The notes under the pieces are model-generated. The model did not search any database. It worked only from the letters and a program-made list of their open reading frames with translations, and had not been told where the DNA came from. The translations under genes and the position numbers were made by a program. This document shows, piece after piece, positions 6,504 to 64,000 of a stretch of DNA of 64,000 bases. Each line of letters begins with the position of its first letter. The first letter of the stretch is position 1. Location of the stretch: the NCBI GenBank assembly GCA_016872555.1, contig VGZO01000007.1, forward strand, positions 38,897 to 102,896. The letters run 5' to 3'. Origin of the DNA: Planctomycetota bacterium. GTDB taxonomy: Bacteria > Planctomycetota > Planctomycetia > Pirellulales > UBA1268.

Positions 6504-7286
6504 TCACCCCCCGCCGCCAGCCGCTGTCGCGCCGCTCCCATGCGGAATGCCGGCATCCGCGGAGCGAACCACAGATCCGGTTGCCGTCGACTCGGCGGTT
6601 GAATCAGCGGGCTTCGTGTCAAGACGCTCCGCGACCGCACGGTCGAATGCAGGCAGCATCACCGACAGAAACTCCCGGCAGATTCCGCTCGACTGCGGCG
6701 CACTGACCGCGGTCTGATCGATGATCGCATACAGCTTGTACACCGCTGCCGTGCCGGCAAGTTCGATCCGCGCGATCTGCGGAGCAAGCCATTCGCCACG
6801 CACTCCATAGGTCCAATACACCCGGATGGTCTGGCCGGTCTTCCGAAACGTGCCCACGAACGCCTCCGCACGCCGGCCGTCTTCGAGGGTGATCGTCTCG
6901 CGGTGCTCCGTCTCCGCGATCTCGAACCCCGCGGCGGGGTAGCAGCGATCAGGGGTGTGCCCCGAGGCATCGTGGGGCGTTGCACAAATCACGAAGGCCG
7001 CGACTTTCGCGCCGGTGTCGTTGTTTTGATAGAGCCGCGAAACATGTCCGACGGCACCGGCGCGCTCCAGCTGCTCCTGACTCGACTCGACGTCGTCGAC
7101 ATACTTCCAAGGCCCAATCTCGGCGGGAAAGGCCTCCTCGAGGATCATCGCGCTGACCTTCAACTCACCGGCGATATCGCGATCCGACCAGCGCTCGGTC
7201 CAAACACCCTGGACCGCGGTGACGACGGCCACGAATGCGGCGGCGATGACCAACGGGATCACGGCTCTTGCCCGTTCGTTGAACAT
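6504..7286 (-). CDS. epsI: exosortase-associated EpsI family protein
   Basis: 260 aa with a single N-terminal TM (VIPLVIAAAFVAVVTAV). Conserved EpsI core HTPDRCYPAAGFE (H-x-P-x-x-C-x-x-x-x-G). Located in the exosortase operon. Confidence 0.8.
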   Translation of the reverse strand: MFNERARAVIPLVIAAAFVAVVTAVQGVWTERWSDRDIAGELKVSAMILEEAFPAEIGPWKYVDDVESSQEQLERAGAVGHVSRLYQNNDTGAKVAAFVICATPHDASGHTPDRCYPAAGFEIAETEHRETITLEDGRRAEAFVGTFRKTGQTIRVYWTYGVRGEWLAPQIARIELAGTAAVYKLYAIIDQTAVSAPQSSGICREFLSVMLPAFDRAVAERLDTKPADSTAESTATGSVVRSADAGIPHGSGATAAGGGG

Positions 7287-7343
7287 CTCCCGGTCTCCGG
7301 TAGGCGGGTGGTCGAGGTATCAGCCTTCGAACCGCGGTCGGTA

Positions 7344-9662
7344 TCAACGCAGAGCCTGGGTGTAGTTCCGCCTACTTTTCCCGAGGGCGACGCCGTGCAT
7401 GACGCAGCCGAGCACCGTGATCCCCACCGACCGGAGCCGACTGATCGAAGCGGTCAGATTCGGAACGCTCGTCACGTCGCGCATCACCGACACGACAGCG
7501 ACATCGGCCTGCTGACCGAGAAGCAGCGCGTCGGCCAATTCGATACACGGCCCTGAGTCGATGACCACGTGGTCGAAGGCATCGCGGTACTTACCAAGGA
7601 TCGTTTTCAGTTGCGGTCTGGACAAGGCGAGGATCGATTCCGTGTCACACCCGCCTGCCGTCACGGTGAACAGTCCGTCGATCTCGGTAGGCTGAATCAC
7701 CTCGTCGTTGCCGCACTCGCCCCGCAGGACCTCGGAGAGGCCGGTCCCGAGATCGATCTGGACGATCGAGTGGACCGAGGGATGCCGAAGGTCGCCATCG
7801 ATGAGCAACGTCCGCTTGCCCGACCGGGCGATGCTCGCCGCCAACTGGGCGGCAAGCGTGGTCTTCCCCTCGTGTTCACCGGAGCTCGTGACCAGGATCA
7901 TCTTGGCCGCATCCCGCCCCGCCTGCATCGTCAGGGTACGGATCGTGTCGATCGACTCCATGAAGCGGCCGACATCGGTCGGTGCACGCTTCGATCCGCG
8001 CCGACGCAAACGCGGCAGCGTGCCCAGCAGCCGCACACCGACGCGATTCGGGATCTCTTCGGGGTAGCTCAGTCGATCGCGAAGCAGCTCCGTGCCGATC
8101 GTGAGACCGACTCCGGTGGCGAATGCGAGCACGCCCGACAGTCCGGCGAGGACTGCACGGGAGACGTCGCTCGACGACTGCGGCACCGACGCCGGCTCGA
8201 GGAGGCGGACACGGGAGGGCATGTTGATGTCGACGCTCGACGCCTCGAGTTGCTTGCCCAAGAGACCGGTCACCTGCTCCAACTGGTCGATCTCACCCCG
8301 CCGCAGTTCCAGATCGGAGTTGGCGCGGCCGATCAGCAGCAGTTCCTCGGAGAGCTTCTGGTACTCGTTCCGGCTCTCCTCGAGAATCTTCTCGATCACC
8401 GCACGTCGGACCCTGAGCACGGCGGGGCTGACGGCGGCCTGACCCGGATTTCCGACGTTGCTCCGCAACTGCCTCGCGACCTGGGGCCGCAACTCGGCTC
8501 GCACTTCGTTGAGCTGCCGTACCGCCGATTGGTACTGATCCCGGAGCCGCCGGACCGATGGCTCGCTCAAACCACGGGCACTTCTCGCCATTTGCTCCGA
8601 GAGCGCCTGCCCGAGCGACCGGATCCGCTCCTTGACCTCTGCCACGGCGGGATCGCGATCGATGACGGCCTCGACCGCGTCGTCGCCCCTGTCTTCCGCG
8701 GAATCGTTCTCGGAGTCGAGCCCGTCGGCAATTGCCAACTCAGTGTCGATCCGCGATAGGTCATTCTCGGCATTCTCGACATCGGCCCGAATACCCGCCA
8801 ACTGATCCATCAAGAGGGCACGGTTGGTCGTGACTTCAGAACTCGAAAGGGAATTGGTCGTCCTGGCGATCTCGTAGAACTTCTCCTTGCGGCTGCGCAA
8901 CTCCGACTGACTCTCCTTGAATTTCTTCTCCAATTGATCCCGCTTCGCCAACCGGTCGGCGCGATCTTTGTTGACGATGTCGTCGAGGTAGCTCTCCGTG
9001 ACCGCGTTGAGGATCTTCGCCGTGTCCTCAGCGATCGGCCCTCGCAAGCGGAGGGTCACGACCTCCGACTCCTGAGGTGCCGACATGAGGATGTTCTTGG
9101 CCAGCCAGTCTGACGGATCGTCCTGCTCCTTGATCGTGGGCAGATCGGCAACACCGGGACGCCGCAGTGCGGAGTTCAAAACGAACGGGCTCTTGAGCAA
9201 CTGCATCTGGGTCTTGCGGTACTGATCCTGGACACCCGCGACCGGGCCCAGCATGCCCTGCTCCGAGCGCATCTGCAGCCAGACGACCGCTTCATAGCCC
9301 TTCGGCAGCAGGAACCATGTCGGCACCGCCACCAGCGGCGCCAGCAACGAGCCGATCAAGAGAGCCGGCAACCAACGTCGCCGGACCGCATGCAGCAACC
9401 GCCGGGCGTCGAACCCCGGCGGACCTTCGGCACTCGGGGGGACCGCGACCGTTTGGTAGTCGGGAAACGGCACGAGAGGCGTGTCGCCCCTGATCGTCAA
9501 ACCCCCGACCGACGGAGACGGGACAGCCCCAGCCGGAGTCGCTGCGAACCCGCCGTCGGCTTCGGACGCGGTCATGCCCGTCCACTCCTCTCGATGAAAC
9601 CCGCTGCCCCTCGAAACGATTCGAGCAGACGGCTCGACCAACCGCTCCCCGGCATCACCCAC
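7344..9662 (-). CDS. polysaccharide co-polymerase / tyrosine autokinase-like protein (GumC/Wzc/EpsG type)
   Basis: 772 aa with two TM segments flanking a long coiled-coil chain-length-determinant region. C-terminal P-loop ATPase has SSGEHEGKTT (Walker A), LLIDGDLRHP (A') and VVIDSGP (B). No Tyr-rich C-terminal tail is visible. Confidence 0.88.
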   Translation of the reverse strand: MGDAGERLVEPSARIVSRGSGFHREEWTGMTASEADGGFAATPAGAVPSPSVGGLTIRGDTPLVPFPDYQTVAVPPSAEGPPGFDARRLLHAVRRRWLPALLIGSLLAPLVAVPTWFLLPKGYEAVVWLQMRSEQGMLGPVAGVQDQYRKTQMQLLKSPFVLNSALRRPGVADLPTIKEQDDPSDWLAKNILMSAPQESEVVTLRLRGPIAEDTAKILNAVTESYLDDIVNKDRADRLAKRDQLEKKFKESQSELRSRKEKFYEIARTTNSLSSSEVTTNRALLMDQLAGIRADVENAENDLSRIDTELAIADGLDSENDSAEDRGDDAVEAVIDRDPAVAEVKERIRSLGQALSEQMARSARGLSEPSVRRLRDQYQSAVRQLNEVRAELRPQVARQLRSNVGNPGQAAVSPAVLRVRRAVIEKILEESRNEYQKLSEELLLIGRANSDLELRRGEIDQLEQVTGLLGKQLEASSVDINMPSRVRLLEPASVPQSSSDVSRAVLAGLSGVLAFATGVGLTIGTELLRDRLSYPEEIPNRVGVRLLGTLPRLRRRGSKRAPTDVGRFMESIDTIRTLTMQAGRDAAKMILVTSSGEHEGKTTLAAQLAASIARSGKRTLLIDGDLRHPSVHSIVQIDLGTGLSEVLRGECGNDEVIQPTEIDGLFTVTAGGCDTESILALSRPQLKTILGKYRDAFDHVVIDSGPCIELADALLLGQQADVAVVSVMRDVTSVPNLTASISRLRSVGITVLGCVMHGVALGKSRRNYTQALR

Positions 9663-56762: not shown

Positions 56763-57693
56763 ACCGGCTCGAGCCGTCGGCCCACAGGACGTTGACCCCG
56801 CCGGGATGGCGGCTTCGCGCCCCCCGCCAGCCGTAGCCGGCGTACATCAGGCGGGGATCGGCCGTCGCCATGTTGACGCCGAGGCAGTCGATCTCGGGAT
56901 CGTTGGGAAGGCGGCGGTGGTTGTAGAGGCAGGTCCGGTACTCGCCGTTGGCCCAGGAGAATCCGCGCAGGTCGGTGAAGTTCCAGTAGAAGGCGGACCG
57001 GCACCCGGCATCTGACAGGGGAAACGCGAACGTGAACGCATAGCCGTTCGCCGCGGTGATCGAGCCGCGGTTGGTGGTCGCGACCGGACCGTCGCCGAGG
57101 TTGCTCTCCGCGAACGCCACCGTCTTGGAAAGTCCGTCGGTCACGTCGCGCGGCTTCGTCTGGGAATTCACGAAGAACATCCCGTCGGTGTCGAACGGCG
57201 TGCCCCCGCCGACCCCGGTCCCGGTGCAGGCGGCATAGTTCGTCGGCCCGAACAGCGGCGACACCGGGCCATTGCGATCCGACGGGCAGAGAAACAGCGG
57301 GATCGTGAGGGCGACGATCGGCTTGTTCTGCGGGGCGATATCGGCCGGCGTCAGGCCGATGTACAGCGGCACGGAGAGGTCGAGGCTGCGGAGCAGCGAT
57401 TCCTGCTCGTAATACGGTGCGAGGTGGGCGAGCACCGACCAGCGGAAGAACTGGTGCGGCCAATTGGGCTTCGCCGCCCAGGCGCGGGCCTCGGCCCCCA
57501 CCGGATACCGTCCCCTCGCTCCCTCGTGATTGGCCGCGGCGATGCCGATCTGGCGCAGGTTGTTGACACACTGCGTCCGCCGGGCGGCCTCGCGGGCTGC
57601 CTGCACGGCCGGCAGGAGCAGCGCCACGAGGCCGCCGACGATGGCGACGACGACGAGCAGTTCGACGAGCGTGAATCCGCGCCGGGCGATCAT
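56683..57693 (-). CDS. DUF1559 protein with prepilin-type N-terminal cleavage/methylation domain
   Basis: 336 aa. [50 protein letters not shown] is the canonical planctomycete pseudopilin-like N-terminus. C-terminal [16 protein letters not shown]. The start overlaps the upstream stop (ATGA). Confidence 0.92.
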
Positions 57694-58796
57694 GGTCGGC
57701 GGAGTCTACTCCCCGCCCTGCGCCGTCGCCACGCACACCAGGCGGCCAATCCCGCGCCCGTCACCGCCAGCGTGACGCTCCCCGGCTCCGGGACGGCGAC
57801 GATGCCGCCGATCTGCCCCAAGCCGCTGGAAAACGTCGGACCGGCCGAGCCGTCGGCAAAGAACGAGTAGATCGCCCCGTCCCCGGCCGGGCTCCCCACC
57901 AGCAACCGATCGCCCTGCATCATCGTCATCACCCCGGCGCCGAACGGAGCACCAGTGGAGGCGAACGAAGTGGTGTTCAACGTGGCGAGGTCCGTTTTCA
58001 GCACGTTGCCATTCATGATGCTGGCGGTGTAGAGGGAACTACCGCTGATCACCAGGCCTGTCGGGCCGAGGAGACCGCTGGCGCCGTTGGCGATCACCTC
58101 GCCCACGTACGCTCCGGTGGCGTCGAACTTCTTGACCGGCCCGGTCGCGGCGAACGTTTGGAAACTGTAGGTCTGGTCGGCGACGTACAGACTGCCGTCG
58201 GGGCCGATTGCCAACCCGGGGCTGCTCGCGAGATTGCCGCCGACGGTGTAGTCGGAGACGGTGTAATTGAACGACGATCCGCTTTGGCCCACGCTCACCT
58301 TCACCACCGGACCGGTGTTTTGGTAGAGGGGATTTCGGCCGACGAGCAGGTCATTTCCCTTGAGGACGATGCTGGCGGGAAACACCCCGGCCGCAGCCAG
58401 CGAAACCACCTCCGGCGACAGTGTCCCCGTGGTCACGTCGAACCGGCGGAGCTGCGGGCCGACGGTCGTGGAGTTACCTGATTCGCCGATATACAGCGCG
58501 CCGTCGGGGCCGAGCGCGAGCGCCGCCGGGCTGAAGAGCGTTCCGTCGGGCAGGAGCGTGGTCAACGTTCCGGCGGGGTTCGCCGAGTCGTATCGCGACA
58601 GGCTGCCATTTGTCAGGCTCGCCACATACACCGTGTCGGCGACCGCGAGGCCGGCGAGGGCGACCACGGCCAAGCCTGCCACCAGCAACCCCATGCGCGG
58701 CAACCGGCGGATGCCGCCCGCTCCCGATCGCCCCTCACCACCACCGCGCCGACCTCGCCGGTCGGTCCCCACCGAACGCACTCCCGAACGCTTCAT
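57690..58796 (-). CDS. PEP-CTERM-anchored NHL/beta-propeller repeat protein
   Basis: 368 aa. GGGAGAG lies upstream of ATG 58796. Signal/anchor [19 protein letters not shown]. Repeated GPDG(A/S)LY(I/V)... propeller blades. The C-terminus [28 protein letters not shown] is a PEP motif plus TM plus Arg cluster. Confidence 0.85.
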
Positions 58797-58872: not shown

Positions 58873-59325
58873 GTCGTCGTGACCCGTTCGACCGCATGAC
58901 AGTCCTCACGGCGACACCACGGCGCCGTCAACCAACGCCCAGACAGTCCGTGGACCGAGCCCTCGCGGGACTCGTTCCACGGCGTCTTCGCGCGGACTCC
59001 GGGCGCGGCGGACAGGCGGCGTCCGGAGCAAAGACGCTCCGGGGGGCAAATCGCGGGCCAAACGGAACGTCCGCCGGGGCCGGTGCGCGCCTGCCGGAGC
59101 GAACCGCTGCCAGACGGCAGTGTTTCAACTGAAAACCAGCGGCGCCCGGCCGTCGGTCATCGCGTTGCTTTCGCGATGGCAAGAAAGGCGAACTGTCGAC
59201 GTGGGGCAATTTGCCCCACGGTTCCGCGTGCCTTGGAGCCGACAGCACCGTGATGGGCCGCCGTGGATGGTGCGAATCGTCCCACGCAGTCGCCGCAGCG
59301 AGCGGGAACCGGCTCGATTGGACAG

Positions 59326-59396
59326 TTGCCCGGCTAGGATTCGAACCTAGACAAAGGGAACCAAAATCCCTTGTGCTACCGTTACACTACCGGGCA
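59326..59396 (-). tRNA. tRNA-Gln (anticodon UUG)
   Basis: Hand-folded on the minus strand. Acceptor TGCCCGG/CCGGGCA, D arm GTGT-AACGGTA-GCAC, anticodon stem AGGGA/TCCCT with loop TTTTGGT, T arm CTAGG-TTCGAAT-CCTAG, discriminator A. Confidence 0.9.
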
Positions 59397-59475
59397 GTCG
59401 TCGTCTCGACGCATGATACCCGCAGGCGGGGCAGCCGGACCGGGCGGCGAACGGTTTGGCCACGCGAGCCGTCGC

Positions 59476-60270
59476 TCATCGTGGTGACGACTCGCCGCCT
59501 GACCCCGTCCGCAGCTCTCCGGGCGTTGATCCGTCGCCGGCTGCGGTCGTCGCGGGCGCGTCGCTGGGACCGCCGGCGGCAGCGGTCTCCCCCGGCTTCA
59601 CCAGCCGGTTGGTGACCGCGAACGAGAGTTGCTCCAACTCGATCGCCAGATCGACGGAAACGACCTGGACCTGCGGTGGCAGGGCGAGCGTCACCGGGGC
59701 GAAGTTGACGACCCCTTCGACCCCCGCGGCGACGAGCCGGTCGGCGACCTGCTGGGCCTGGTCGGCAGGCACGACGATCATCCCCAGGCGGATGCCGTGC
59801 TCGCGGACGATCCGCGGCAACTCCGCGAGCGGGAGGATCGGCAAGCCCTGGATGACCTGCCCGACCTTGGCCGGGTCGGCGTCGAACACCGCCTGGATGG
59901 AGAAGTTCTGCCGGCCGAAGCCGCGGTAGCCGAGCAGGGCCTGCCCGAGGTTGCCGGCGCCGACCATCACCACCGGCCAGAAATGGTTGGTGCCGAGGAT
60001 GTCGCGCATCGCCCGGATCAACTCGTCGCAGCGGTAGCCGACACCCGGGTAGCCGAACTGCCCGAAGAAACCGAGGTCCTTCCGCACCTGGGCGTCACTG
60101 AACCCCAGGAGCGTGCCGAGTTGCCCCGACGAAATCGTCTGCTGACCGGCAGCCTGGAGCCGCTGGAGCTCGCGGAGGTACAGGCTCAACCGGCTGACCA
60201 CCACCTTCGGCACCGAGACGTCCGAAGGGGGCTCGCCGGCTGGGGGTCGCGTGTCGCTCATGTCGGCCAT
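59476..60270 (-). CDS. rex: redox-sensing transcriptional repressor Rex
   Basis: 264 aa. Winged helix RLSLYLRELQRL...ISSGQLG..., Rossmann VVMVGAGNLGQALLGY, and a low-complexity C-terminal tail. Confidence 0.9.
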   Translation of the reverse strand: MADMSDTRPPAGEPPSDVSVPKVVVSRLSLYLRELQRLQAAGQQTISSGQLGTLLGFSDAQVRKDLGFFGQFGYPGVGYRCDELIRAMRDILGTNHFWPVVMVGAGNLGQALLGYRGFGRQNFSIQAVFDADPAKVGQVIQGLPILPLAELPRIVREHGIRLGMIVVPADQAQQVADRLVAAGVEGVVNFAPVTLALPPQVQVVSVDLAIELEQLSFAVTNRLVKPGETAAAGGPSDAPATTAAGDGSTPGELRTGSGGESSPR

Positions 60271-60545
60271 GCGGTGCGCGTGTCATCCCCCCGAATCGGC
60301 ACGACTCTACCGACCCGCCCCCGTCACCCGCAACGAACGCGGGTCCGGGATGTCAATCTGTGCCGAATGTCCGGCCACTGGTGCCCTGGAAAAACGGTGC
60401 TGGCTGCGTGTTTTGGTCAATCTGCGTGGTTTTTGTGGCCGATGGTTTCCTAGGCGTGCCGGCGGACCGCGCCGGCCCCACTCCCCATCGTTTCCACCCG
60501 AACCACTCTTTGCTCAGGAGCACCTCCTCGCCAGAGGAAGCAGCC

Positions 60546-63134
60546 ATGAAGACCACGTGGACAGCCTGTCTGCTGCTTGTCGCCGGGATCGGATGGGCGG
60601 CCGCCGCCCGCGCCGATCTCGCCGACATGCCGGCCGACGGTGCCGGGACCGCGGCGCTTTCCGCCGCCGATCCCTGCATCGAGGGCGAACCGACGCCCGC
60701 CGACGACCCCGTCATCGACGCCCCGTGCAGCCCGACGCGGCTGGTCCGGGACGTGGTGTTCGAGAACCGTGACTTCACCTGCTGGAAGACCGTCTCCGAG
60801 CGGCAGGTGGAGCAGCGCGAAATCGACTGCATCCGCTTTGAGAGGGAAACGTCCTTCAAGGAACAGGAATACACGGTCTGCACGCCGGTGTGGGAGTCGC
60901 GCACCCGGACGGTGAACTACACCCTCACCAAGCCGGTGTGGGAGACGATCACCAAGGAGATCCCCTACACCGTCTGCACGCCGGTGTGGGAGACGCGGCA
61001 GCGCGAAATCCGCACCACGGTCTGCAAGCCGGTGTGGGAGACGCTCACCAAGGAGATCCCCTACACCGTCTGCAAGCCGGTCTACGAGACGCGCCAGCAG
61101 ACCTACACCGTCTGCAAGCCGGTGTGGGAGACGCTCACCAAGGAGATCCCCTACACCGTCTGCAAGCCGGTCTACGAGACGATGAGCCGCGAGATCCCCT
61201 ACACGGTCTGCAAGCCCGTCTACGAGACCCGCCAGCAGGTCTACACGGTCAACAAGCCCGTTTACGAGACCATGTCCCGTGAGATCCCGTACACGGTCAA
61301 CAAGCCCGTCTACGAGACCCGCCAGCAGGTCTACACCGTCAACAAGCCGGTCCACGAGACCATGTCCCGCGAAGTCCCCTACACGGTCAACAAGCCCGTC
61401 TACGAGACCCGCCAGCAGGTCTACACGGTCAACAAGCCGGTCTACGAGACCATGTCCCGCGAGGTCCCTTACACGGTCTGCCGGCCGGTGTACGAGACCC
61501 GTGAGCAGGTCTACACGGTCAGCAAGCCGGTCTACGAGACGATGACCCGCGAGATCCCCTACACGGTCTGCCGGCCGGTGTACGAGACCCGTGAGCAGAC
61601 CTACACCGTCTGCAGGCCGGTCCAGGAGACCCGCACCAAGGAGATCCCCTACACCGTCTGCAAGCCGGTGTACGAGACCCGCGAGCAGACCTACACCGTC
61701 TGCAAGCCGGTCCAGGAGACCCGCACCAAGGAGATCCCCTACACCGTCTGCAAGCCGGTGTGGGAGACCCGTGAGCGCGACGTCTGCAAGACGATCTGCA
61801 AGCCGGTCCACTACACCAAGACCGTGCAGGTCCACTGCGGCCGCTGGGAGACCGAGGTCTGCGAGATCCCCGGACCGGTGATCACCCGCTGCATCCGCGA
61901 GCCGGGCTGCTGGGTGTGGGACGAATGCCAGTGCAAGTGCGTCTACCAGCCCGGCGAGGTGCGCCGCGTCGAGGAGCAGTGCCCGCCTCGCCAGGTCACC
62001 AAGAAGCGGTGGGTGACCGAGATCCGCGAGAAAGAAGTGCAGTGCGTCCGCCACGAGCGTGAGACCGTCGTCGAGAAGCGCTGCGAGAAGGTCTGCCGGA
62101 TGGTCCCCGTGCAGCGGATCAAGACCTGCACCTACACGGTCTGCCGGATGGTGCCGGAGCAGCGCTGCCGCACCTACCAGGTCTGCCGGATGGTCCCCGA
62201 GCAGCGCGTCCGCACCTGCACCTACACCGTCTGCCGGATGGTGCCGGAGCAGCGCTGCCGCACCTACCAGGTCTGCCGGATGGTGCCCGAGCAGCGGGTC
62301 AAGACCTGCGCCTACCAGGTCTGCCGGATGGTGCCCGAGCAACGCGTCCGCACCTACCAGGTGTGCCGCATGGTCCCCGAGCAGCGCGTCCGGACCTGCA
62401 CCTACCAGGTCTGCCGGATGGTGCCCGAGCAGCGCGTCCGCACCTACCAGGTGTGCCGCATGGTCCCCGAGCAGCGTGTCCGGACCTGCACCTACCAGGT
62501 CTGCCGGATGGTGCCCGAGCAGCGCGTCCGCACCTACCAGGTGTGCCGCATGGTCCCCGAGCAGCATGTCCGGACCTGCACCTACCAGGTCTGCCGCATG
62601 GTGCCCGAGCAGCGCGTCCGCACCTACCAGGTGTGCCGCATGGTCCCTGAGCAGCATGTCCGGACCTGCACCTACCAGGTCTGCCGCATGGTGCCCGAGC
62701 AGCGCGTCAAGACCTGCTGCTACAAGGTCTGCCGGATGGTGCCCGAGCAGCGTGTGCGCACCTACCAGGTGTGCCGCATGGTCCCCGAGCAGCGCGTCAA
62801 GACCTGCTGCTACAAGGTCTGCCGGCTGGTCCCCGAGGAGCAGGTCCGGACCTGCACCTACAAGGTCTGCCGGATCGAGAAGGAGCAGCGCGTCAAGACG
62901 TGCACCCAGCGGGTCTGCCGGATGGTCACCGAGCAGTGCTCGAAGGAAGTGCCCTACAAGGTGTGCACGATGGTCCGCGAAACCCGCACCCGCCAGGTGC
63001 CGGTGACGACGGTCCGGCCTGTGCACGAGACGAAGACCATCGACGTGGTGCGGATGGTGCCCAAGCGGGTGCCGTACACCGTGACGCAGCGCGTCCCGAT
63101 GACGGTCTACCGCGAGGAACCCGTCTGCCAGTGA
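60546..63134 (+). CDS. secreted Cys-rich YTV-type tandem-repeat protein (two repeat modules)
   Basis: Start set at ATG 60546 within ORF 60360..63134. Signal peptide MKTTWTACLLLVAGIGWAAAARA. About 20 units of YTV[CN][KR]PV[YWHQ]ET..., a Cys-rich linker, then about 20 units of Y[QTK]VCRMVPEQRV[RK]T(C[TCA]). Followed by a strong terminator. Confidence 0.88.
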   Translation: MKTTWTACLLLVAGIGWAAAARADLADMPADGAGTAALSAADPCIEGEPTPADDPVIDAPCSPTRLVRDVVFENRDFTCWKTVSERQVEQREIDCIRFERETSFKEQEYTVCTPVWESRTRTVNYTLTKPVWETITKEIPYTVCTPVWETRQREIRTTVCKPVWETLTKEIPYTVCKPVYETRQQTYTVCKPVWETLTKEIPYTVCKPVYETMSREIPYTVCKPVYETRQQVYTVNKPVYETMSREIPYTVNKPVYETRQQVYTVNKPVHETMSREVPYTVNKPVYETRQQVYTVNKPVYETMSREVPYTVCRPVYETREQVYTVSKPVYETMTREIPYTVCRPVYETREQTYTVCRPVQETRTKEIPYTVCKPVYETREQTYTVCKPVQETRTKEIPYTVCKPVWETRERDVCKTICKPVHYTKTVQVHCGRWETEVCEIPGPVITRCIREPGCWVWDECQCKCVYQPGEVRRVEEQCPPRQVTKKRWVTEIREKEVQCVRHERETVVEKRCEKVCRMVPVQRIKTCTYTVCRMVPEQRCRTYQVCRMVPEQRVRTCTYTVCRMVPEQRCRTYQVCRMVPEQRVKTCAYQVCRMVPEQRVRTYQVCRMVPEQRVRTCTYQVCRMVPEQRVRTYQVCRMVPEQRVRTCTYQVCRMVPEQRVRTYQVCRMVPEQHVRTCTYQVCRMVPEQRVRTYQVCRMVPEQHVRTCTYQVCRMVPEQRVKTCCYKVCRMVPEQRVRTYQVCRMVPEQRVKTCCYKVCRLVPEEQVRTCTYKVCRIEKEQRVKTCTQRVCRMVTEQCSKEVPYKVCTMVRETRTRQVPVTTVRPVHETKTIDVVRMVPKRVPYTVTQRVPMTVYREEPVCQ
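60870..61830 (+). repeat. coding tandem repeat module A (42/48-nt units, 90-bp super-period)
   Basis: For example, 61201-61290, 61291-61380 and 61381-61470 align base-for-base with few substitutions. Confidence 0.9.
62091..62940 (+). repeat. coding tandem repeat module B (42/48-nt units, 90-bp super-period; 8 phased copies at 62131-62850)
   Basis: Copies start at 62131, 62221, 62311, 62401, 62491, 62581, 62671 and 62761. In a 40-nt-shifted register, 62351-62440 versus 62441-62530 differ at 1 position by my reading. Confidence 0.92.
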
Positions 63135-63213
63135 CCCTTCGATGCTGACGCCCCTGCCCCCGGCATGCGCCTGCGGGCCGGCCGGTGGGGACGGGCGGGA
63201 CGATTGGGAGTGG

Positions 63214-63252
63214 AGCGGCCCGGTCCGGCAGGACCGGGCCGCTTCTTTTTTG
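63214..63252 (+). terminator. Rho-independent terminator of the YTV-repeat gene
   Basis: 13-bp perfect GC-rich stem AGCGGCCCGGTCC-GGCA-GGACCGGGCCGCT, followed by TCTTTTTTG, 80 nt after the stop codon. Confidence 0.9.
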
Positions 63253-63263
63253 CCTCAGCCCGT

Positions 63264-64000
63264 TCACTGCCGTGGAGGCGCGGGTGCGGCGCTTCCGGCA
63301 CCGGCGGCCTGCTGGCCCGGGATGACCGGCGCGACGCCGTTGGCCTCACGGGCCGCCGGCCGGGCGATCGACTCCGTGTCGCCACCGGCCTCGCGGGCCG
63401 CCGGCGACGTCGCCTGCTTGCGCATCACGTTCACCGGCGCCGCGCCACGGGCGATCTCGGCGATCGGTTTGAACGTCATCACGCCGTTCTCGAACACCAG
63501 CCCGTAGAGCTCCTGGCCGCCGGTGTGGCAGTCGAATCCCTCGGGGCCACCGCAGCCCGACGTCGGGCAGGTGGCGAACGGCATGAAGCCGACGTAGCGG
63601 AACCCGTACAGCTGCTTGCCGCAGGGCCCCTCGCCGAGGACCGCCTCGTAGAAGCCGAGGGGCACGTTGGTGGCGTTGACGACGAAACCCTCTCCGCCCG
63701 CAGCCATCCGCGCGCCCGCCGCGCCCGCAGGGAGACTGCTGATCAGCGACCCCAGCGCCGTCAGGTTCTCGTCGGTCTGGCTGTCGAGTTGGACGTCGAG
63801 ACCGGTCAGGTTCCACCCTTGGTCGAGCGAGATCGACGTGTTGTTGATGCCGAAGCCGCTCCGGGCGTGGATCGCGTATTCCTCGCTGAAATCAGGGAGG
63901 TAGACCAGATCGATCGCCACCTGGGTTGTCGAGGCTTCACCGGTCACCGTGTTCACGAACGGCGCGAGCTTGAGGTACGGCTTGGGCCGGTAGTAGCGGA
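63264..64000 (-). CDS. hypothetical protein, partial (5' end beyond window end)
   Basis: The track lists 63264..63956, but the frame stays open to base 64000 (...RYYRPKPYLKLAPFVNTVTGEAST...). Contains a Cys cluster (FATCPTSGCGGPEGFDCH) and an Ala/Gly/Pro-rich C-terminal tail. No family recognised. Confidence 0.6.
   Translation of the reverse strand, partial: RYYRPKPYLKLAPFVNTVTGEASTTQVAIDLVYLPDFSEEYAIHARSGFGINNTSISLDQGWNLTGLDVQLDSQTDENLTALGSLISSLPAGAAGARMAAGGEGFVVNATNVPLGFYEAVLGEGPCGKQLYGFRYVGFMPFATCPTSGCGGPEGFDCHTGGQELYGLVFENGVMTFKPIAEIARGAAPVNVMRKQATSPAAREAGGDTESIARPAAREANGVAPVIPGQQAAGAGSAAPAPPRQ

Follow-up and report, generated by a model that had tools for sequence, protein, structure and literature searches.

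Results

A YTV-family gene lies between divergent rex and a convergent gene

The window analysed here is a stretch of 64,000 nucleotides from a Planctomycetota contig (VGZO01000007.1), and the features of interest lie towards its right-hand end (Table 1). The open frame spans 60360-63134 on the forward strand, and the ATG at 60546 yields a protein of 862 aa. In an alignment this start codon coincides with an ATG at 19 orthologous loci and is preceded by a conserved GAGG Shine-Dalgarno-like box. An exact-sequence look-up of the protein matched no record; the nearest relative, a protein of the metagenome-assembled genome (MAG) REEB424, is 98% identical. Membership in the YTV family, which the first-pass annotation had proposed, was established by HMM search: Pfam YTV (PF07639) matches with 661.9 bits against a gathering cut-off of 21 bits (E = 2.1e-204) over 26 stretches. 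The Pfam and NCBIfam scan of the protein detected YTV alone, with no adhesin, sorting, anchoring or pore-forming domain (beta-pore-forming toxin, MACPF or aerolysin type). The gene thereby adds a further member to an established family. Of 78 related loci, nearly all come from genomes with the names Pirellulales, Planctomycetaceae, Planctomycetia or Lacipirellulaceae, and the protein matches with a source name are from Gemmata, Blastopirellula and Planctomycetales. A few related MAGs carry the names Kuenenia, Cyanobium, Chitinophaga or Granulosicoccus, apparently through mistakes of binning or labelling; aside from these oddly named MAGs, the YTV repeat family occurs only within the class Planctomycetia.

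Table 1. Coordinates of the features at the YTV locus, in window positions
Feature	Position	Strand	Basis or remark
rex, redox-sensing repressor gene, divergent neighbour	59476..60270	-	Pfam Put_DNA-bind_N and CoA_binding
rex-YTV intergenic region	60271..60545		several conserved blocks across 19 loci; candidate divergent promoter and 5' UTR
Small hairpin UCCUC-GCCA-GAGGA	60525..60538	+	has in its stem the Shine-Dalgarno-like GAGG, 8-9 nt ahead of the ATG
Coding sequence, 862-aa YTV protein	60546..63134	+	stop codon included; Pfam YTV match, conserved start
Putative signal peptide, aa 1-23 (MKTTWTACLLLVAGIGWAAAARA, then D)	60546..60614	+	read from the sequence; AlphaFold2 helix 6-20
Acidic Asp/Pro/Ala-rich N-terminal segment, aa 24-61	60615..60728	+	net charge -9; pLDDT <50 almost throughout
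Proposed hairpin, arm 1: aa 62-441 (380 aa)	60729..61868	+	head strand, module 1, degenerate units
Cys-rich compact tip, aa 442-481 (PGPVITRCIREPGCWVWDECQCKCVYQPGEVRRVEEQCPP)	61869..61988	+	6 Cys; four short strands in the AlphaFold2 model
Proposed hairpin, arm 2: aa 482-862 (381 aa)	61989..63131	+	degenerate units, module 2, tail strand
Intrinsic-terminator-like hairpin and T6 run	63212..63251	+	15 pairs (12 G-C), hairpin 63212-63245

The upstream neighbour had been read as rex, and its domains agree. By tblastn, rex and the YTV gene are neighbours at about 60 orthologous loci; rex was not found beside the homologs P0015, P0050 (Gemmata) or P0005, so the adjacency is not general to YTV genes. 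With rex divergent upstream, a convergent gene downstream and a terminator hairpin between, the gene is monocistronic by geometry, as had been claimed. The "textbook terminator" of the first-pass annotation holds as a terminator-like hairpin followed by TTTTTT, 78 nt 3' of the stop codon and ahead of the convergent ORF at 63264-63956. The claim that the gene has its own promoter region stands in part: gene geometry argues for it, but a scan of the rex-YTV intergenic region found no sigma-70 consensus, so that a promoter may be placed there from the geometry only. No canonical Rex operator (TTGTGAA-N4-TTCACAA-like) occurs in the window at up to three mismatches, though the planctomycete operator may diverge from this form. 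An Rfam scan of 59300-63400 returned tRNA-Gln only and no family in the intergenic region. In the alignment of 17-19 loci, a CAGGAG box is conserved at 60515-60520 (forward strand), and the small hairpin ahead of the start codon has four pairs, one of them compensatory (UA to CG in two sequences). A putative ECF-like pattern, GGAAAAAC-N20-GTCAA, is also seen in a conserved intergenic block.

Residues 1-23 have an n/h/c layout and an A-x-A site (A-R-A before D) of the Sec type. As far as the sequence can be read, the protein is probably exported by the Sec route, in keeping with the secretion proposed earlier, and it combines a high Cys content with a candidate N-terminal export signal, as YTV cell-wall proteins do. 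The head after the signal peptide (aa 24-108) has exactly the 85 residues estimated before, and its acidic segment is probably disordered.

The two repeat modules are mirror images in unit length

The first-pass description of a repeat protein is confirmed as a whole, including its two modules of about 20 units with 14/16 alternation. Module 1 (aa 109-414, nt 60870-61787) contains 20 units of the form Y-T-V-[C/N/S/T]-[K/R/T]-P-V-[Y/W/H/Q]-E-T, with spacings of 16, 16, 16, 16, 14, 16, 16, 14, 16, 14, 16, 14, 16, 14, 16, 14, 16, 14 and 16. Module 2 (aa 514-819, nt 62085-63002) contains 20 units of the form Y-[Q/T/K]-V-C-R-M-V-P-E-Q-R-V-[R/K]-T(-C-T), again spaced by 14 or 16. Tandem Repeats Finder gives a 90-nt period with about nine copies per module and 85% and 90% matches. 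What had been taken for a 95-aa linker is instead a compact tip of 40 aa between degenerate units that continue both arms, and its EPGxW...QCPP motifs are kept in homologs. The order of head, module 1, EPGCW...QCPP centre, module 2 and VPYTVT tail, a layout derived here from the homologs rather than from a published definition, is common to 39 anchor-parsed homologs including the window protein. A search of a representative library with the tip region gave 63 matches, most of them fragments; the few complete distant relatives among them retain the proline phase described below, and the anchor patterns transferred imperfectly.

By a hand count, reading the spacings of module 2 in reverse reproduces the series of module 1 with no mismatch in 19, and the forward reading disagrees at 8 of 19 positions. 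The start of each module 1 unit and that of its mirrored module 2 partner total 913 throughout. The first-pass annotation had seen the irregular 16-mers of module 1 and missed the same irregularities, reversed, in module 2. A collapsed or expanded assembly would break exact mirror images, and the repeat array is therefore not an assembly artefact. Origin of the mirror by inverted duplication of DNA was also rejected: no long inverted repeat links the two modules, and translation of the antisense frame gives a GLVDRLADGV repeat that bears no relation to them. The mirrored unit lengths suggest that the chain folds back into one very long two-stranded ribbon.

Repeat number varies across related genomes, in most homologs with the arms matched in length. 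The difference in length between arm 2 and arm 1 is -9 in 24 of the 39 homologs that the anchors could parse, over eight arm sizes from 163 to 373 aa, and the two arm lengths correlate over all 39 (Pearson r = 0.90). Measured by the same anchors, the arms are 373/364 aa in the window protein versus 201/192 aa in cultured Lacipirellulaceae orthologs. The 14/16 series is specific to lineages, as in L061 (646446446) versus L077 (644644646) and in L001 versus L002, with further distinct series in L034 (66664666466646666), L017 and L007, and each lineage-specific series recurs reversed in module 2 of the same protein, that is, with compensatory changes. In the remaining 15 of 39 homologs the arms are unequal, differing by multiples of 30 aa or by combinations of 14 and 16; all 15 are metagenome-assembled contigs, and the inequality may reflect collapsed repeats or may be real polymorphism.

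Prolines keep a single phase and cysteines are concentrated in arm 2

The prolines of arm 1 occupy even positions in 31 of 32 cases, and all 24 prolines of arm 2 occupy odd positions. All 24 length-matched homologs keep one proline parity per arm, and the parities of the two arms are concordant under antiparallel pairing. A single two-residue phase held over 380 residues fits a continuous strand better than a series of hairpins with turns.

The protein contains 67 Cys (7.8%), 66 after removal of the signal peptide, and 39 of them lie in arm 2, 20 more than in arm 1. The net charge is +44 for the mature protein and +47 for arm 2. A conserved intramolecular ladder of Cys at unit position 4 is not supported, since arm 1 is nearly free of Cys in several relatives, some of which have 0-5 Cys in arm 1 versus 40-44 in arm 2. 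Seven units of module 1 in the window protein have Asn, Ser or Thr opposite a retained Cys. The register that would bring 13 position-4 Cys of module 1 to face position-4 Cys of module 2 is four residues away from the AlphaFold2 register, in which none of the 24 matched proteins places Cys opposite Cys. It would have i+j = 919, with 112-807, 144-775, 160-759, 176-743, 190-729, 206-713, 222-697, 312-607, 342-577, 356-563, 372-547, 386-533 and 402-517 as candidate Cys pairs.

AlphaFold2 models very long strands that meet at a compact tip

The AlphaFold2 model of the window protein has a mean pLDDT of 54, with low confidence over most of the chain. Block-mean values rise to about 80-93 over aa 331-530, with a dip at about 361-390, and to 89-93 in the tip, where strands are modelled at 445-451, 455-459, 464-468 and 472-478. 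On either side of the tip, strands 384-441 and 482-539 are of equal length and would pair at i+j = 923. In the model of P0005, a homolog of 602 aa, strand 52-108 is set against 383-439 and strand 177-225 against 266-314; both pairs have i+j = 491, which would pair the head with the tail. The pairing was deduced from DSSP segment boundaries of the models, and a monomer prediction for a protein that pairs chain to chain would likewise fold back on itself. In each model the arms also slip midway by a single repeat step, which amounts to 30 aa for the window protein and 16 aa for P0005. The all-beta, Cys-rich structure that had been proposed is supported.

Foldseek against the PDB returned nothing but beta-hairpins of great length, from the phi29 tail, lysenin, anthrax PA, aerolysin and MACPF pores, with TM-scores of 0.13 or below. 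A PDB sequence match to "HeliScrew4" (9zem, E = 3e-4) was set aside; it relates the PEQ periodicity to a helical-looking repeat protein with an alignment accuracy of 0.31.

Discussion

The YTV family can no longer be described as lacking an assigned function, as the first-pass annotation had it. In three Planctomycetia, SDS-boiled preparations of the cell wall contain YTV proteins as their major proteins (PMC5287468, PMC8567305, PMC12673574), and a YTV protein belongs to the essential gene set of Planctopirus limnophila (PMC10632474). By analogy with these distant homologs, and from their proteomics, we infer a wall role for the 862-aa protein. We propose, with a probability of about 0.6, that it is a Sec-exported structural envelope protein of the YTV family that forms one giant antiparallel beta-hairpin, each arm having about 380 residues. 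Beyond the signal peptide and the acidic segment, the chain would fold as a single giant two-stranded antiparallel beta-ribbon, in which arm 1 runs out to the 40-residue Cys-rich tip and arm 2 returns alongside, so that unit k of module 1 would face unit 21-k of module 2, with the head likewise facing the tail. The unit lengths, always even (14 or 16), would keep the side-chain and hydrogen-bond phase constant along the strand, with Thr, Pro, Cys, Gln and Met on one face of the ribbon, Val, Tyr, Ile and charged residues on the other, and the single-phase prolines presumably at outward-pointing NH positions. If straight, such a ribbon would measure about 0.12 um, and it would lengthen in evolution by matched 30-residue steps in both arms. 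The 66 Cys of the mature protein, in surplus on arm 2, would probably cross-link ribbons to each other, and perhaps also staple the arms; this cross-linking could produce the SDS-resistant proteinaceous wall layer where YTV proteins occur.

The mirrored series, the equal arms and the proline phase would be explained equally well if module 1 of one molecule paired with module 2 of a neighbour, in domain-swapped dimers or open-ended polymers, and the wall were a network formed by strand exchange plus disulfides. The insolubility of wall preparations in boiling SDS (PMC5287468) suits such an interlocked polymer, and an AlphaFold2 monomer run cannot tell intrachain from interchain pairing. Nevertheless, the arms are joined by a compact, conserved and confidently modelled tip that is most simply a hairpin turn, and the head-tail pairing of P0005 is modelled inside one chain; we regard interchain pairing as unlikely and infer that the arms pair within the molecule, with a tentative exact register and a tentative disulfide connectivity. 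The first-pass picture, in which each 14/16 unit is a disulfide-stapled beta-hairpin or a beta-solenoid coil in a stacked fibre of two independent modules, appears very improbable. It draws on the short, regular, Pro- and Cys-rich repeats, on a 30-residue super-repeat that is plausible as a solenoid coil, and on consecutive Cys-to-Asn replacements reminiscent of Asn ladders. It leaves unexplained why the module 2 length series is reversed and why the arms stay equal over eight sizes, and a stack of unit hairpins is further disfavoured by the strict proline phase over 380 residues and by modelled strands 45-58 residues long, both of which point to a continuous strand.

A different function would be that of a surface adhesin or fibre, or of a polycationic protein that binds anionic polymers. 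YTV proteins would then turn up in wall preparations through their insolubility rather than their function. The strongly positive charge of the mature protein and of arm 2 and a varying repeat number, which is typical of surface proteins, are compatible with this reading, and wall localisation is argued by analogy from distant homologs. We consider it quite unlikely, since YTV proteins are top-scoring in wall preparations of three genera (PMC8567305, PMC5287468), one is essential in P. limnophila (PMC10632474), and the domain scan disclosed nothing of the adhesin, sorting or anchoring type. The protein shares with the YTV wall proteins of R. baltica, G. obscuriglobus (GobsU_38067/28375/21360) and T. 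immobilis the Pfam family, a signal peptide and richness in Cys, Pro, Thr and Val, and with YTV homologs the N-terminal repeats, the PGP...EPGCW...QCPP centre, the C-terminal repeats and the VPYTVTRCV tail. It differs in having about twice as many units (20 + 20) as the cultured Lacipirellulaceae orthologs, and, unlike known YTV wall proteins, it has no AGYCG motif after the signal peptide.

The anthrax PA pore (3j9c), lysenin (5ec5), aerolysin and phi29 gp9 (6qz9) each have two antiparallel strands, many tens of residues long, that meet in a tight tip, but have no sequence kinship with the window protein and resemble it in hairpin geometry alone. Their hairpins comprise 30-100 residues and are stabilised by lateral barrel assembly, whereas the arms of the window protein are repeat-built and of about 380 residues, and its regularly spaced prolines should disfavour lateral sheet growth. 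In the adenovirus fibre shaft (a 15-residue triple beta-spiral) and the T4 gp5/gp12 beta-helices, beta-repeats of about 15 residues set rod length by their number. These viral fibres are parallel trimers with one repeat block, and lack a mirrored block, a Cys-rich tip and the 14/16 parity rule. Within the PVC superphylum, chlamydial OmcA and OmcB form a disulfide-cross-linked protein layer that is the proposed source of envelope rigidity. The likeness to the window protein would be a functional analogy and not homology, as Pfam finds YTV alone and the repeats and predicted fold differ.

The fold principle, a hairpin built by mirrored repeats, appears unreported. The mirror architecture is absent from the YTV literature examined; the bipartite layout may already have been described, in Mahajan et al. 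2020 (GBE) or in Hieu et al. 2008. Hieu 2008, Sagulenko 2017 and Mahajan 2020 are reportedly studies of YTV cell-wall proteins.

The composition and cohesion of the proteinaceous wall of Planctomycetia have been under debate since the 1980s. The main components identified in it are YTV proteins, yet we know of no structural model for them. The mirror rule combines arms of equal length, a 14/16 series that is reversed in the second module and one phase for the prolines. It provides a concrete and testable model of a wall protein, and in practice a MAG in which the arms are unequal can be flagged for collapse of the repeats in assembly. YTV wall proteins might, at somewhat less than even odds, constitute an undescribed fibrous class: length-calibrated, repeat-built two-stranded ribbons of more than 100 nm, each a single folded chain whose arms co-vary in 30-residue steps, welded by the excess Cys of arm 2 into a covalent protein sacculus behind the SDS resistance of the wall and, in this clade, perhaps tied in expression to redox state via the conserved divergent rex. 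If the model is true, there would be a defined set of candidate disulfides, deletions in a single arm would be harmful and paired deletions tolerated, and rod length would scale with repeat number, from about 65 nm in cultured Lacipirellulaceae to about 125 nm in this freshwater clade.

Identification of the gene product as a YTV family protein

The open reading frame of 862 codons, its 85-aa head, the two modules of 20 units each and the Cys-dense centre between them are as the first-pass annotation had described them in detail. Membership of the YTV family was borne out by a Pfam YTV (PF07639) match of 661.9 bits (E = 2e-204), and an NCBIfam search with the protein returned nothing meaningful beyond that family. 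Module 1 units follow YTV[C/N/S]KPVxET with 16/14 spacing, module 2 units follow YQVCRMVPEQRVRT(CT) with 14/16 spacing, and Tandem Repeats Finder reports a period of 90 nt in both blocks. The protein is rich in V (15.9%), T (12.7%), R (11.5%), E (9.8%), P (7.9%) and C (7.8%) and strongly basic, with a net charge of +44 overall and +47 for arm 2. Read by eye, the N-terminus MKTTWTACLLLVAGIGWAAAARA/D is a putative Sec-type signal peptide, modelled by AlphaFold2 as a helix at 6-20, in line with the export that had been proposed.

Starting at an in-frame GTG at 60360 would lengthen the protein by 62 residues. Sequence comparison indicates that the ATG at 60546 is the true start, because its position is shared by 19 orthologous loci and preceded by a conserved GAGG box, and because conservation further upstream is at the nucleotide rather than the protein level. 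The long shadow open reading frames within the gene are by-products of its GC-rich repeat. Six public "proteins" (P0008, P0009, P0010, P0027, P0129, P0161) are frameshifted chimeras of YTV repeats and alternative frames, a sign of errors in the sequencing or assembly of such genes.

YTV was earlier said to lack an assigned function, which is outdated. In SDS-boiled cell walls the major proteins are cysteine-rich YTV proteins, as shown for Tuwongella immobilis (PMC8567305), for Gemmata obscuriglobus (PMC5287468) and, according to Hieu 2008 as cited in PMC8567305, for Rhodopirellula baltica. One YTV protein is encoded by an essential gene of Planctopirus limnophila, and its cysteines are the suggested means by which it controls wall rigidity (PMC10632474). 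A repeat-modelling survey lists YTV without a structural match (PMC8078820), and a PDB sequence search with our protein found no meaningful relative. The exact protein was absent from the public protein collection by exact-sequence look-up, the best public matches being only 36-58% identical; the gene adds an unusually long new member to the known family.

Features of the YTV locus and of its nearest relative
Feature	Position	Strand	Remarks
368-aa ORF	57690-58796	-	weak NHL-repeat matches; sub-threshold C-terminal PEP-CTERM match
rex	59476-60270	-	Pfam
Conserved block GACTCTACC	about 60310		nearly invariant, 19 loci
Conserved block CTGGAAAAAC	about 60386-60395		nearly invariant, 19 loci
Conserved block GTCAA..TGCG...TTTGTGGCCGATG	about 60418-60445		nearly invariant, 19 loci
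Conserved block TTTCGTT	about 60490		nearly invariant, 19 loci
Conserved CAGGAG box, then hairpin UCCUC-N4-GAGGA	within 60515-60545
YTV protein ORF	60546-63134	+	862 codons
Shadow ORFs inside the YTV gene, including an 858-aa ORF	60450-63026	-	858-aa ORF; + strand frames too
Strong terminator-like hairpin	63212-63245		between YTV gene and convergent ORF
230-aa ORF	63264-63956	-	convergent; no Pfam match
YTV homolog L011 (MAG REEB424)	6524-8929		JAGWVR010000014.1

The unit spacings of the two modules are mirrored

The spacings of module 1 (16,16,16,16,14,16,16,14,16,14,16,14,16,14,16,14,16,14,16) are those of module 2 (16,14,16,14,16,14,16,14,16,14,16,14,16,16,14,16,16,16,16) reversed: by hand count the reversed comparison gives 0/19 mismatches and the forward comparison 8/19. 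Paired unit starts sum to 913 throughout (109+804, 157+756, 233+680, etc.), and counting outwards from the tip gives 380 residues for arm 1 (aa 62-441) and 381 for arm 2 (aa 482-862). The mirror is a property of the protein level; no long inverted repeat in the DNA links the two modules, and the antisense frame of the gene encodes an unrelated repeat.

Arms were measured in homologs with all four conserved anchors (head xCYKTV, EPGxW, QCPP and tail VPYTVTRCV). Arm 2 minus arm 1 was an identical -9 in 24 of the 39 proteins parsed, at eight arm sizes (163, 185, 195, 201, 313, 317, 341 and 373 aa). All parsable isolate genomes (Aeoliella SH292, Bythopirellula Pla144, Adhaeretor HG15A2) obey this equal-arm rule, as do all megabase-scale MAG contigs (5.2 and 5.7 Mb), where parsable. 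An independent parse recovered lineage-specific 14/16 series, each reversed in module 2 of its own protein. Examples (6 = 16, 4 = 14) are 646446446 in locus L061 vs 644644646 in L077, ...6664646646... in L001 vs ...6664664646... in L002, and 66664666466646666 in L034, with L017 and L007 as further cases. Such series, which differ between lineages and are mirrored within each protein, are compensatory changes.

The other 15 proteins show differences that are multiples of 30 aa or 14/16 combinations, with one to three "64" pairs extra or missing in the perfectly alternating zone; all derive from metagenome-assembled contigs, most evidently short-read. In the alternating zone of our gene the module 2 repeats are 94-99% identical in DNA. 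Assembly collapse is the simplest explanation of the deviant arms, real polymorphism a possible one. In many MAGs the contig stops inside the YTV gene, which is no surprise where a repeat interrupts short-read assembly. Unequal arms could flag the assembly quality of YTV genes in MAGs.

Distribution of related loci

A genome scan recovered 78 related loci. The nearest is in MAG REEB424 (L011): outside a 60-aa gap its YTV protein is 98% identical to ours, with 15 substitutions over 802 aligned residues, and its Rex is likewise 98% identical. The gap removes residues 615-674 of our protein, exactly two super-repeats of the alternating zone, at a place where the DNA repeats are 97-99% identical, and probably reflects assembly collapse. 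Lake MAGs labelled Pirellulales or Planctomycetaceae come next as a large clade with 60-87% identity in the best segment, followed by cultured Lacipirellulaceae (Bythopirellula, Aeoliella, Adhaeretor) at about 50%. Nine Pirellulales-type loci (L012, L028, L040, L045, L052, L063, L027, L049, L071) come from MAGs titled Candidatus Kuenenia, Cyanobium, Granulosicoccus or Chitinophaga, likely mislabels or binning contamination. In one subfamily (P0003, P0005, P0006, P0007, P0110, P0111, P0125) a C-terminal helical domain follows the hairpin tail, whereas our protein lacks it; the P0005 domain (aa 489-601) is modelled confidently (pLDDT 84-98), and precomputed Pfam annotation marks TPR-type family PF14559 in P0003.

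Strand phase, structure prediction and cysteine pairing

All unit lengths are even, so the prolines of each arm share one parity with a single exception: 31/32 prolines of arm 1 are at even positions and 24/24 of arm 2 at odd positions. Opposite parities combined with antiparallel pairing (i+j odd) place all prolines in one class of cross-strand pair, and all 24 homologs with the -9 difference show one parity per arm, with both arms in agreement. Proline in a β-sheet is tolerated only where its NH points away from the partner strand, and cross-strand disulfides favour the same non-hydrogen-bonded pairs. Even unit lengths account for the alternation between 14 and 16 residues in place of a constant 15. 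One face carries Thr, Pro, position-4 Cys, Gln, Met and Trp, and the other Val, Tyr, Ile, Lys, Arg, Glu and the module 2 position-15 Cys.

AlphaFold2 (full protein, 96 homologs) gave a low mean pLDDT of 54, with ten-residue block means of about 80-93 over aa 331-530 and a dip at about 361-390. Long continuous strands are modelled in this region (E330-374, E384-441, E482-539, E579-623) around a compact four-strand tip at 445-478; E384-441 and E482-539 are of equal length with i+j = 923. For P0005 (602 aa, mean pLDDT 69), E52-108 vs E383-439 and E177-225 vs E266-314 both give i+j = 491, with a low-confidence one-unit slip between the strand pairs and a separate helical C-terminal domain after them; segment boundaries in this model suggest that head pairs with tail. 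Foldseek against the PDB returned only weak matches (TM at most 0.13), all long β-hairpins (phi29 tail, lysenin, anthrax PA, aerolysin, MACPF pores), which supports the hairpin geometry.

A register of i+j = 919 puts each of the 13 position-4 Cys of module 1 opposite a position-4 Cys of module 2. The AlphaFold2 register is 4 residues off, and across the 24 matched proteins it never places Cys opposite Cys. A conserved intramolecular Cys ladder is not supported, because some relatives have next to no Cys in arm 1 (0 vs 40 in arm 2 in L054 and L057; 4 vs 42 in L062) and because Asn, Ser or Thr lies opposite a retained Cys in seven module 1 units of our protein. Of the 66 Cys in the mature protein, arm 1 carries 19 and arm 2 carries 39, and the arm 2 surplus may be best explained by inter-ribbon links, which would fit an SDS-resistant wall.

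The rex neighbour and the intergenic region

About 60 orthologous loci, ranging over the lake clade and cultured Lacipirellulaceae, have rex divergently next to the YTV gene, an arrangement absent from YTV genes further removed (Gemmata, Pirellulaceae-type). An operator search found no canonical Rex box in the window; a redox link between rex and the Cys-rich wall protein is a possibility. Several blocks of the 275-nt intergenic region (60271-60545) are strongly conserved across 19 loci, with no Rfam family match and no sigma-70 consensus; they may represent an unusual (ECF-like?) promoter or a structured 5' UTR. The UCCUC-N4-GAGGA hairpin sequesters a Shine-Dalgarno-like GAGG 8-9 nt before the ATG, and in two lineages one of its base pairs is CG instead of UA, a compensatory change. 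By geometry the gene is monocistronic, as first annotated, because rex is divergent and a terminator-like hairpin precedes the convergent downstream ORF. Only the two closest loci retain that ORF (L011, 97%; L010, 76%), and the 368-aa ORF is kept upstream of rex in about 20.

Proposed fold and evolution of the wall ribbon

The β-structure and the role for cysteines in the originally suggested stapled hairpin stack stand; its topology does not, since the mirrored series favours one hairpin as long as the chain. A unit-hairpin or solenoid arrangement shares those β and Cys elements, leaves the mirror unexplained and is very improbable. The main rival keeps the same pairing of module 1 with module 2 and places it between chains by domain swapping; the sequence data fit it equally and do not separate it from intrachain pairing, and we regard it as unlikely, though a more serious contender than the solenoid.

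In the single-hairpin reading that we prefer, the protein would be exported via Sec and fold into one ribbon about 380 residues long, roughly 0.12-0.13 μm if straight at 0.33-0.34 nm per residue, with a Thr/Pro/Cys face and a Val/Tyr/charged face. Disulfides would cross-link the ribbon into a wall layer. Length would evolve as both arms gain or lose 30-aa super-repeats together, each worth about 10 nm, with unmatched intermediates removed by selection. As far as accessible papers show, this mirror-hairpin principle is unreported for YTV proteins, and it is directly testable.
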